Source: a virus
Taxonomy: Duplodnaviria > Caudoviricetes
Reading direction: 5' to 3' (one strand)
Length of the DNA stretch: 33,718 nucleotides
Virus record (IMG/VR): IMGVR_UViG_3300027744_000006
Coordinates: 1-33,718 of that record
Shown here: positions 1-29,512 of the stretch, one piece after another
How the letters are laid out: each line of letters begins with the position of its first letter
Numbering within the stretch: the first letter of the stretch is position 1
Translations under genes and position numbers: made by a program
The notes under the pieces: model-generated
Seen by the model: only the letters and a program-made list of their open reading frames with translations
What the model was told of the DNA's origin: nothing
Database searches by the model: none

Positions 1-127
1 TCGGAACACATTGGGCGCTGGCCTTCCATGTGAACTGACCAGCGTTTGGGGCATCCTGGCACACTGCACATCAGGCGCTGAACATCGTCTAGCGGGTCTT
101 TTTTGGTGTCTGGTTTTACAAAGTTCA
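1..127. repeat. Terminal direct repeat, copy 1 (circular assembly overlap)
   Basis: 1-127 is identical to 33592-33718, and an ORF reads through the junction. Confidence 0.97.
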
Positions 128-889
128 TTTTTGGTACTTTCCATCAATTATCTTGGCGAAATTGGTTGCGTTCACTATCCACACCAGATCAGGTCGCCAT
201 GTCCTGTCCTTGGTTTCGAACCCGTTTGCCAGCTTGGTATCGTTAGCAATGTAGGCAAAAAACGAATCCCACCACGCCAACCCATCCGATTGGCTTGCAT
301 ACCCCTGTGGGCTAAATACAGACGGTTTGGCGGCTTGCAACCACCTTTGCCGTAGGTTGGTCTGCCTGACCCCATCCCACACCCTTGGCTGGGCAAGCTG
401 TGGCAAATGCTTTTTGTAAAGATTCAAAATGTCCTGATGGGGGCAAGTCGGCAACCCTGCCGACAAAGAATCTTTAGATTCTTTATATATATTGGTTAGT
501 GGTTTATGGTTAGTGGTTAGTTGAACGTCTGTTGAACTGCTGTTGAACACCTGTTCATCACCTGTTGAACTGTTGTTCTTTCTGCGTTCAGCAGATGCTC
601 GACCAGCGTTGGATTTTTTCTCAAGAAATGCGCGGTAATCGGCAATTTCTTGATCGCATCTTGTGTGATGCCAACCGCTTTCTGCCAACCAAAAAAATGA
701 ATCCAAAAGCAAATCTATTTCTTCAACAGTTGTGCCAATCTGAAAAGCCAAAACTTTAGTGTCAGTCTTCAGTGGTTTTTCTGTGTCGTAATACATCCAC
801 AAAAGCCGCAAATAGGCCATTGATTGACCATCAGTAAGCCTTGCCGTGGCTTTGATAAAGTCACCAATGTGGTGCTGGTAATAGTGCAT
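125..889 (-). CDS. YdaU/DUF1376-family replication initiator (lambda O-like)
   Basis: N-terminus MHYYQHHIGDFIKATARLT..AYLRLLWMYYDTEKPL is typical of DUF1376. It lies downstream of a Cro-like gene and contains iterons. ATG889 is preferred because AAGGT precedes it. Confidence 0.85.
   Translation of the reverse strand: MHYYQHHIGDFIKATARLTDGQSMAYLRLLWMYYDTEKPLKTDTKVLAFQIGTTVEEIDLLLDSFFWLAESGWHHTRCDQEIADYRAFLEKKSNAGRASAERRKNNSSTGDEQVFNSSSTDVQLTTNHKPLTNIYKESKDSLSAGLPTCPHQDILNLYKKHLPQLAQPRVWDGVRQTNLRQRWLQAAKPSVFSPQGYASQSDGLAWWDSFFAYIANDTKLANGFETKDRTWRPDLVWIVNATNFAKIIDGKYQK
481..574. repeat. Putative replication origin: iterons, 7-mer repeats and an AT tract
   Basis: GTTGAAC at 520, 531, 542, 553 (variant GTTCATC) and 564, an exact 11-bp period. 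Four TGGTTAG-like units at 493-520. AT tract at 482-492. All lie inside the initiator gene, as in lambda O. Confidence 0.75.
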
Positions 890-895
890 TTTTTT

Positions 896-990
896 ACCTT
901 TTTCACGCACCTTTGAAAAGAAACGGCGGCAGGGGAAGGTGTAACCCTTTTCGGTCTGCTCATGACTTCAGACCTAGCCGTGTTTCAAAC
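896..990 (-). ncRNA. Candidate structured cis-regulatory leader RNA of the initiator gene
   Basis: Nested stems GAAAC/GTTTC, CGGC/GCCG, GGTCTG/CAGACC and GGG/CCC. The loop CACCTT is complementary to downstream AAGGTG/AAGGT. A -10-like TAAGAT sits at 992-997. Confidence 0.55.
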
Positions 991-994
991 AATC

Positions 995-1150
995 TTACAT
1001 TGAAAACCACTCAGGACGCAATACCATCAATTGCCAAATCCTCGCTTGGGGGACAGTTTTCCATTGGGAAACCGCCGATTGGTGGATGCCCAAGATTCTG
1101 GCAAGCTCAGTCTGTGAGCCAGCCAATGCAATAAATTTGTCCTTGTTCAT
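995..1150 (-). CDS. cro: Cro/YdaS-like HTH regulator, 51 aa (not in ORF track)
   Basis: Manual translation MNKDKFIALAGSQTELARILGIHQSAVSQWKTVPQARIWQLMVLRPEWFSM shows the HTH signature ELARILGI-QSAVSQW. Confidence 0.88.
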   Translation of the reverse strand: MNKDKFIALAGSQTELARILGIHQSAVSQWKTVPQARIWQLMVLRPEWFSM

Positions 1151-28423: not shown

Positions 28424-29512
28424 TTATCTAAAAATCAATTCTTTTATGGGCACATCATAACTTTGCAATGGAAATTCTGCTTTTCTTTGCTCGTCAGTCA
28501 TGTTTCTGCGTTTTTGTACTGCCCTTGCTTCAGCCTCACCAGCCAAGCGCCTATAAGATTCGTATGGCTTGTCAGCAAGCCGTGCCGCATCCCTGGCTGC
28601 GTCCAGTTCTTTGCCCGTTCCCACTCGTTCTAGTGCGGCAAATGCCCCTGGCTCGGCGCTTCTTTCAAAAAGTTTCTCAAATCTTTGCTTGGCTTCCAAT
28701 TGGCTGAGATTTGAACCCCGCATCAACTTGTCAATGATTGCGGCATCTTCCAAAGCTTTGACACTAAAAACATCATTTGGCTGAAACAAGCCAGGATTGC
28801 CACCTCGGGCAAATCCTTCTCTTTGTTGCACACCATGTTGCAATTCATGTAAAGCCACACTTCTCTGCGCCATTTGACTTGGCCCTGCAACTGTAATTTG
28901 CGGTGTTTGAAATGTGCCACTTCTTCCTGGCATTAAATTTCCACTTGGAAGTTCATCCGCATACATCAATGTTCGTGCTTGCCCTGCTTGGGGATAGGCT
29001 TTATACAATTCTTCATGTTCTAACGCTTGGCTCATTGGCCCTTTGAATTGCTTGTTTGCTTTAATTTGGTTAAAGACTTCATCAGTGATCTTTGAGGCTT
29101 TATCGCTGATTTCTTGCCGCCATTGCTTATCTGGGCCTCTGAATGTGCCTGTTTGTTCCCAGATTTCTTCAGCGCTTTTACCCGCTTTTTCCAATTCTTG
29201 GGCTTTTACAGCGTTTATTTTGTTAAAAGTGGCTGAATTTGGGCCTACAAATATACCCGCAGGGTTATATGCCTGTGCCAAAGTGCTTCTAAGCCCCATT
29301 TCGGCTTGTGTTTGCTCTGGCGTGGGTTGCTGGCCTCTGGCCTGGGCGATTGTGTAATCAGTTGCCAGTGCGTGTTTCTTGTTGAATTCCCGTGCATTCT
29401 CGTTTGCGGCAAACAGCATCTGTTCAAGGCTTGTCCCAGGATTCTGGACAAAATCCGATGATTTGCGCTTGAACGTGTTGATTGCGCTGTAAATGTCAGC
29501 AAGGGTTGGCAT
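28424..29512 (-). CDS. LPD23-like domain plus zincin (HExxH) metallopeptidase-like protein
   Basis: IWEQTGTFRGPDKQWRQEISD, LHELQHGVQQREGFARGG and YRRLAGEAEARAVQKR. Confidence 0.75.
   Translation of the reverse strand: MPTLADIYSAINTFKRKSSDFVQNPGTSLEQMLFAANENAREFNKKHALATDYTIAQARGQQPTPEQTQAEMGLRSTLAQAYNPAGIFVGPNSATFNKINAVKAQELEKAGKSAEEIWEQTGTFRGPDKQWRQEISDKASKITDEVFNQIKANKQFKGPMSQALEHEELYKAYPQAGQARTLMYADELPSGNLMPGRSGTFQTPQITVAGPSQMAQRSVALHELQHGVQQREGFARGGNPGLFQPNDVFSVKALEDAAIIDKLMRGSNLSQLEAKQRFEKLFERSAEPGAFAALERVGTGKELDAARDAARLADKPYESYRRLAGEAEARAVQKRRNMTDEQRKAEFPLQSYDVPIKELIFR

Follow-up and report, generated by a model that had tools for sequence, protein, structure and literature searches.

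A probable long-P2 variant of the int-alpA RNA in the leader of a phage replication initiator, and a model in which it may sense its own dose

How might a phage set the output of its replication initiator from the leader that precedes the gene? The question is raised by a phage genome of 33,718 bases, complete and bounded by direct terminal repeats, which is the window analysed here at its full length. Its terminase, coat and portal genes are P22-like (Pfam), and its best tblastn matches among cultured relatives lie below 60% identity. The initiator (889-125, with its ATG at 889 on the minus strand) falls into PHROGs families described as primosomal and as replication initiation O-like, and it is separated from an upstream Cro-like gene by a gap of 105 nt. 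The original prediction had singled out this gap as one of the largest in the genome and had placed in it a structured RNA with a loop that could pair with the Shine-Dalgarno sequence. The gap ranks fifth among the 53 in our own gene list, and every sequence element that had been described was found in its place on the minus strand (Table 1).

Table 1. Features of the leader and its flanking genes, in coordinates of the window.
Feature	Position	Strand	Basis or detail
Replication initiator	125..889	(-)	N-terminal DUF1376, Pfam E 5e-21; lambda O-like C-terminal part
Site 2, Shine-Dalgarno of the initiator	896..900	(-)	5 bp, -4.5 kcal/mol with P3 loop
Site 1, proximal; predicted decoy/cis pseudoknot	908..914	(-)	6 bp (913-908), -7.4 kcal/mol with P3 loop
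U-rich run beyond the junction; may act as a weak terminator that releases a short free form	916..923	(-)	at least 5 U in 8
Three-way-junction RNA, int-alpA-like	920..986	(-)	RF02996 match 984-910; pair counts
P3 hairpin	933..947 (947-945/935-933)	(-)	loop 944-936 is the specificity (anti-RBS) loop
Junction strand J2/3, GAAAA	948..952	(-)	GAAA invariant in the 18-leader alignment; within Rfam consensus
P2 hairpin, long class	953..974 (974-969/958-953)	(-)	6 bp, 10-nt loop
Self-complementary hexamer UCAUGA; predicted kissing (dimer) site	960..965	(-)	self-duplex 6 bp, -6.6 kcal/mol
P1	986-977 with 930-920	(-)	sequence
Probable promoter in the end of cro	992..1021	(-)	-35-like TTGCGT 1021-1016, 18-nt spacer, -10-like TAAGAT 997-992
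Cro-like repressor, upstream of the leader	995..1150	(-)	Pfam P22_Cro E 7.5e-11

A search of the genome and of 18 relatives (17 of these records are at least 90% complete) found neither a tyrosine integrase nor an S24-type repressor. A temperate life style was rejected on the absence of both genes here (0/1) and in the relatives (0/18); a Cro-like gene without a CI partner or integrase is thus a property of this complete genome, and the 18 relatives are alike in this. The divergent gap beside cro (1151-1266) holds a good plus-strand promoter consensus at 1188-1217. Inside the initiator gene, five overlapping 11-bp iteron-like repeats with a spacing of 11 occupy 509-577 and are followed by an A/T-rich stretch at about 482-521; together these are likely to form a lambda-type origin within the gene. 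Elsewhere in the genome, a 362-residue protein with an LPD23 (large polyvalent protein-associated) domain adjoins the terminase (28424-29512), and a small open reading frame at 30887-31144 matches a PHROG annotated as co-chaperonin GroES (E 2.9e-8).

An Rfam scan of the whole window at the gathering threshold returned no match. When the scan was ranked by E-value, the leader aligned to the entire int-alpA model (RF02996, model positions 1-71 of 71) with 34.3 bits and an E-value of 2.2e-5. The gathering score of the family is 35.8 bits, and the default scan came back empty because the leader misses it by 1.5 bits. The longer P2 hairpin, which is aligned as an insertion and has 22 nt where the model has about 13, costs score through its extra length of about 10 nt. 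Of 20 orthologous leaders, 6 reach the gathering score. The junction letters of int-alpA (CUAG, GAAAAG and CCUG) are all present. The view that the RNA belongs to no named family was therefore wrong: the Infernal search that the original prediction had itself suggested leads to an existing family, albeit below threshold. The leader thus appears to be a long-P2 variant of the catalogued int-alpA family that scores below its cut-off. It shares with the model three stems, the junction letters and a U-rich tail (the model is typed 'Gene; sRNA'); as printed, the model draws no pairing of loop with tail and stops short of site 2. The association with integrase and alpA that the name implies is absent, since the downstream gene is a DUF1376 initiator and the genome has no integrase. 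Models for C4, c4-2, PK-repZ, antisense RNAs, ribozymes and riboswitches gave no match at E<=10.

The int-alpA motif was, we take it, first listed in a survey of 224 motifs. No functional study of it was found in a search confined largely to open-access literature, where RF02996 retrieved no paper. In the accessible portions of two papers the name int-alpA occurs as a gene-order label (PMC13612085) and as a table entry (PMC12370729). The main text of the survey (PMC5737381), in the part available, does not mention the motif, and its supplement may already contain the pseudoknot or palindrome discussed below.

Thermodynamic folding of the leader by itself does not exceed chance. Positions 885-1010 gave a z-score of -0.61, within chance, and the minus strand of 920-988 gave -1.50, with 16 of 200 shuffles equally good and P3 missing from the centroid. 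The plus strand of the same interval folded better (z -2.42). Since folding alone was not significant and the opposite strand performed better, the case for structure rests on comparison. In an alignment of 18 leaders hand-picked from the long-P2 class, 96.5% of the cells pair, compared with 36-60% in slid controls; 10 of the 21 pairs change on both sides, and the covariation score was reached by none of 500 shuffles, while the number of further pair types did not exceed that of shuffles (288/500). The P2 stem lies where it had been drawn and has 6 bp, one more than originally shown, and five of these six pairs carry changes on both sides. Among 52 long P2 stems, G-U pairs outnumber A-C mismatches by 30 to 4, which identifies the mRNA-sense strand as the strand that folds.

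The junction is equally regular across related initiator loci. Eighty were collected, two were dropped because the start of the gene was missing, and the junction was present in the leaders of all 78 that were kept (78/78). A P3 stem of at least three Watson-Crick pairs was parsed in 77/78, and a P2 stem in 76/76 of those reaching that far. Judged by covariation, the predicted three-way-junction fold of P1, P2 and P3 on the sense strand is real, and the proposal of a structured 5′ leader RNA for the replication initiator is borne out. Leaders can also be exchanged between genes. The initiators of L001 and L005/L006 are 96-97% identical, with leaders that are wholly different and a switch located at the start codon; in the same comparison (150 nt before 1501) promoter, P2 and P3-plus-tail appear as separately swapped modules.

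For a view of the family beyond these orthologues, four pattern scans fixing the junction letters only were run, and they yielded 482 loci with 460 distinct matches. A filter based solely on stems passed 245 members, and the 79 matches that failed both stems served as a chance-match control. Fifty pattern-found records were compared with RF02996: 41 match at E<=0.001 and 17 score above the cut-off, against 0/14 control genomes. The loosest pattern is estimated to occur in about 9,800 stretches of the viral collection, where the stem filter passed 60/117 in a sample. Members with distinct P3 loops number 159; a downstream frame was present in 153, and 150 were scanned for domains. Thirty-three of these frames are DUF1376 initiators, 20 are homing-type nucleases (our own grouping, some below Pfam's cut-off), and 14 gave other replication, integrase, antirepressor, ParB or Mom matches; the remainder had no telling match. 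Two integrases and no AlpA occur among the 150. The downstream genes are those of dose-sensitive proteins that act on DNA. The same leader precedes a Mom-family DNA-modification gene (L388:2-640(-)), a ParB-domain gene (L103:2-352(-)) and AntA antirepressors (L171, L236).

The P3 loop sequence CACCTT (941-936) is complementary both to AAGGTG (913-908) and to AAGGT in the Shine-Dalgarno (900-896). As candidate trans targets elsewhere, 28 AAGGT(G/A) hexamers were listed in the genome, and only those at 913 and 900 stand in tandem before a start. Whether this arrangement belongs to the family was asked by scoring runs of at least five Watson-Crick pairs between each P3 loop and the next 50 nt. 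At least one downstream site was found in 142 of 159 members (swapped loops: mean 32, maximum 53), and two sites in 130 of the 159 distinct P3 loops (mean 19.7 and maximum 34 in 200 swap permutations), so that the predicted complementarity of one loop to two downstream partners, the Shine-Dalgarno among them, stood up to the covariation check. The 40 nt upstream, taken as a control, held one site in 15/157 and two in 6/157; counted within 40 nt, the cognate target lies downstream in 141/159 and upstream in 15/157.

The two sites compete for the same bases, at least four of which are shared in 111 of the 130 members, and one loop therefore cannot hold both. Site 1 is the stronger of the two in 84 and the weaker in 40 of the 130 (p 5e-5), by a mean difference of about 1 kcal/mol. 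A start codon was picked after site 2 in 103 of the 130 (27 were dropped, and the picking is crude); in this set the -14 to -4 window is overlapped by site 2 in 82/103 and by site 1 in 7/103. The spacing between the sites is broad, mostly 9-16 nt, and correlates weakly with the length of P2 (rho -0.19) and the P3 stem (rho 0.25).

The P3 loop is also allelic. Among the 78 orthologues, 16 P3 loop alleles were parsed (one a mis-parse), and the two-site match holds for 13/16 cognate combinations compared with 33/240 non-cognate ones, many of the latter between near-identical alleles. Pairs of initiators at least 95% identical over their first 80 residues carry different P3 alleles in 31 of 47 cases, a pattern that recombination at the gene start could produce as well as selection for private specificity. 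In the two-copy records L110/L111, L393/L394 and L256/L566 each copy has its own P3 loop with cognate targets; their P2 loops, in a sample too small to weigh, are identical in one pair and different in two.

The P2 loop carries a different signature, one that the original prediction had missed. The hexamer UCAUGA is a palindrome that is kept through double changes in two of its three pairs in the 18-leader alignment. Among the 70 distinct P2 loops that are no longer than 14 nt, 48 contain a palindrome of 4 nt or more (19.8 in shuffles, with 0/2000 as high) and 19 one of 6 nt or more (2.7 in shuffles), whereas P3 loops are depleted in palindromes (10/170 against 26 expected by shuffle). Self-complementarity of the apical loop is thus maintained through sequence change, a property expected of kissing-loop homodimers. 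In 37/48 loops the palindrome is displaced to the 3′ side, and in five it is centred. A 3′-side placement suits a kissing loop, as in known loop-loop structures; such an off-axis palindrome does not suit a DNA operator. GACG, the second commonest P2 loop (26/245), is of a documented kind, palindromic loops of 2, 4 and 6 nt having been described as RNA dimer interfaces with GACG among them (PMC7357161, available text). With its palindrome, the P2 loop suggests that the trigger is a second RNA molecule and not a metabolite or protein.

The length of P2 falls into two classes, unlike that of P3, which is unimodal. In 101 hairpins the distance from the dyad to the junction is 5-6 nt in 48, 10-11 nt in 44 and 7-9 nt in 5. 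Five additional pairs per copy would make up about one helical turn in a symmetric dimer, and the junctions would keep their relative orientation. The long class is concentrated before DUF1376 genes (25/44), and because it is mostly linked to these genes the two length classes may represent few events. P2 and P3 alleles assort freely, which argues that P2 is not the specificity element. The remaining 22 of the 70 P2 loops have no palindrome of at least 4 nt; two-base CG/GC kissing was considered for the non-palindromic loops and rejected (13 against 10.1 in shuffles, 133/2000), as was a role of the P2 loop as a second target loop, with tail pairing in 7/70 only. The out-of-frame ATG at 963, to which the original prediction had drawn attention, is better seen as a by-product of the palindrome UCAUGA: ATG occurs in 25/159 P2 hairpins, and a function as the start of a leader peptide was rejected because the triplet is allele-specific.

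The stop codon of cro, TAA at 997-995, lies inside the -10-like TAAGAT, and a transcript from this probable promoter is predicted to start near 986, where P1 begins. Of 47 distinct upstream regions taken from orthologues, 43 have a TANNNT that ends 8-14 nt ahead of the core, and in 34 of these a TTG lies at -35 spacing; the -10-like hexamer persists in orthologues even where the upstream gene differs, and in the family it occurs in 95/157 members against 9/79 chance matches. The U run after the junction is present in 29/33 DUF1376-linked members, in 85/159 of the family and in 9/78 chance matches, and in only 9/20 nuclease-linked members; it may simply be there to pair with the A-rich 5′ strand of P1. 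A strict consensus scan called neither a promoter nor a terminator for the leader element, and a strict promoter scan of 700-1400 returned no plus-strand consensus that would transcribe through it. Four metatranscriptome contig sets contained scattered, low-depth pieces only, and none of 13 RNA-type runs held half of the query words.

Our leading explanation, held at about even odds, is that the leader works as a self-dimerising dose sensor, in which a second copy of the RNA docks loop to loop and blocks the RBS. According to the model, the promoter in the end of cro would start the transcript at P1, as its conservation suggests, and P1, P2 and P3 would fold on the sense strand, the step that covariation addresses directly. 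By its complementarity, the RNA's own P3 loop would be caught by the nearer and stronger site 1, so that the Shine-Dalgarno is left free and the default state is ON. Some transcripts would end at the U run that follows P1 and so retain a free P3 loop. Such a short copy could then dock on the mRNA by a kiss between the palindromic P2 loops, laying its P3 loop on site 2. As the number of genomes and transcripts rises, initiator translation would fall, a sign of control that we infer, and each phage variant would, through its P3 allele, have a feedback of its own. The dimer model covers all of the parts, and we regard it as the simplest to use every one of them. Since this phage has neither an integrase nor a CI-type repressor, its need for copy control is not obvious; a limit on origin firing at high multiplicity and a plasmid-like carrier state are guesses at the reason.

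The same parts could be read without a second molecule. In a single-molecule switch, the model of the original prediction and one that we consider unlikely but a serious contender, the P3 loop would change over in cis from site 1 (ON) to site 2 (OFF) and back, and the choice could be set by a protein or metabolite, by folding kinetics or allosterically by dimer formation. Mutually exclusive sites lying about 1 kcal/mol apart on average would serve such a switch well, their broad spacing is only weakly tied to P2 length and the P3 stem, and the highly conserved GAAAA junction is what a ligand or protein site would lead one to expect. The switch, however, leaves the palindromic, 3′-stacked and length-quantised P2 loop unexplained unless dimerisation is itself the trigger, and the downstream genes share no metabolite and have no protein partner common to them. 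A reading at the level of DNA, with the P2 inverted repeat as an operator (for Cro, for example) or a cruciform and the RNA fold incidental, draws on the position of the element next to cro and the promoter and on the better folding of the plus strand. It is largely refuted and hardly credible: the ratio of G-U to A-C in P2 stems marks the sense strand, the palindromes sit off the hairpin axis, the sequence of P2 varies freely while its pairing is kept, and covariation between loop and RBS has no reading in terms of DNA.

Two further explanations keep a trans-acting RNA and change what it does. The junction might be released as a stable small RNA, a diffusible antisense of the C4/CI kind, that binds both sites without a dimer and silences initiators of the same allele, including those of co-infecting phages. 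The C4 RNA of P1/P7 is described as having three stems and a variable specificity loop with which it covers the RBS (PMC5320573, in the portion available), and different P3 loops before near-identical initiators would be expected of exclusion groups. Nevertheless we judge this improbable: neither C4 nor c4-2 matches at E<=10, the RNA begins at the predicted promoter and so has no 5′ leader for RNase P cutting, the target within 40 nt is downstream and not upstream, a single loop is complementary to targets, and the allele swaps may be plain recombination. The polarity could also be reversed, with the P3 loop on the Shine-Dalgarno by default (OFF) and a second copy activating translation, as IsrK of Gifsy-1, a short RNA, activates its own read-through mRNA in trans (PMC4825925, available text). 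Being transcribed ahead of site 2 and in most members the stronger partner, site 1 favours a default in which the RBS is free, and positive feedback on nucleases and initiators would be harder to rationalise; we regard this possibility as very unlikely.

Among known systems, C4 RNA of P1/P7 (RF01695), c4-2 and P4 CI resemble the leader in having three stems and a variable loop over the RBS of their own operon, as far as described in the accessible text of PMC5320573 and PMC4825925. They have two target loops and are cut from a precursor, whereas the leader has one target loop and starts at the predicted transcription start; it also differs from them in its palindromic loop, the lack of an upstream target within 40 nt and the lack of a model match. 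The leader of IncI-alpha repZ is alike in that translation of an initiator is controlled by competing pairings of a leader loop (PMC8383071, part of the text). IncI-alpha repZ relies on the Inc antisense RNA, and here there is neither a PK-repZ match nor, in the strict scan, an antisense promoter across the element; unlike in that system, the loop itself would cover the RBS, and a sense copy would take the part of the counter-RNA. The parallel that had been drawn with IncI/IncB initiators thus does not extend to membership, there being no match to PK-repZ or an antisense family at E<=10.

The kissing loops of the HIV-1 DIS and of MoMuLV (GACG) are similar in joining two RNA copies by palindromic loops of 2-6 nt (PMC7357161, in the part available); the retroviral loops serve genome packaging, and no homology with the leader is implied. 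IsrK, from the prophage Gifsy-1, is likewise a short terminated RNA that acts in trans on its own read-through mRNA, and it activates translation by strand invasion, with no palindromic docking loop mentioned in the accessible part of PMC4825925; no Rfam match to it was found here. Pairing of RNA over the RBS is common to C4/CI, IsrK, IncI repZ and, by prediction, the leader (PMC5320573, PMC4825925, PMC8383071 and PMC2864571, each as far as available), which by their own membership tests falls within none of these groups. Functional natural RNA homodimers are rare, and the literature searched yielded no natural RNA homodimer that regulates translation by sensing its own concentration.

On the comparative evidence from sequence, the element is real and a variant of a catalogued orphan family, and its proposed mechanism is well constrained. 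An orphan Rfam motif that occurs on viral contigs in the thousands thereby gains a sharply testable mechanism, and if the two-site switch alone holds, it would still be the first mechanistic handle on the int-alpA family. If the dimer model is true, phages would possess a control of copy number and of replication during co-infection that needs neither a repressor protein nor an antisense promoter, and synthetic biology would gain a compact, orthogonal, loop-programmable feedback part. Our broadest suggestion is tentative, with the balance tipping slightly against it: int-alpA RNAs may be protein-free repressors that count their own copies by kiss, decoy and RBS closure, a 70-nt cassette placed before genes that are harmful in excess, such as those of initiators, homing nucleases, integrases and antirepressors, and the P3 alleles may define replication incompatibility groups in an abundant group of freshwater phages.
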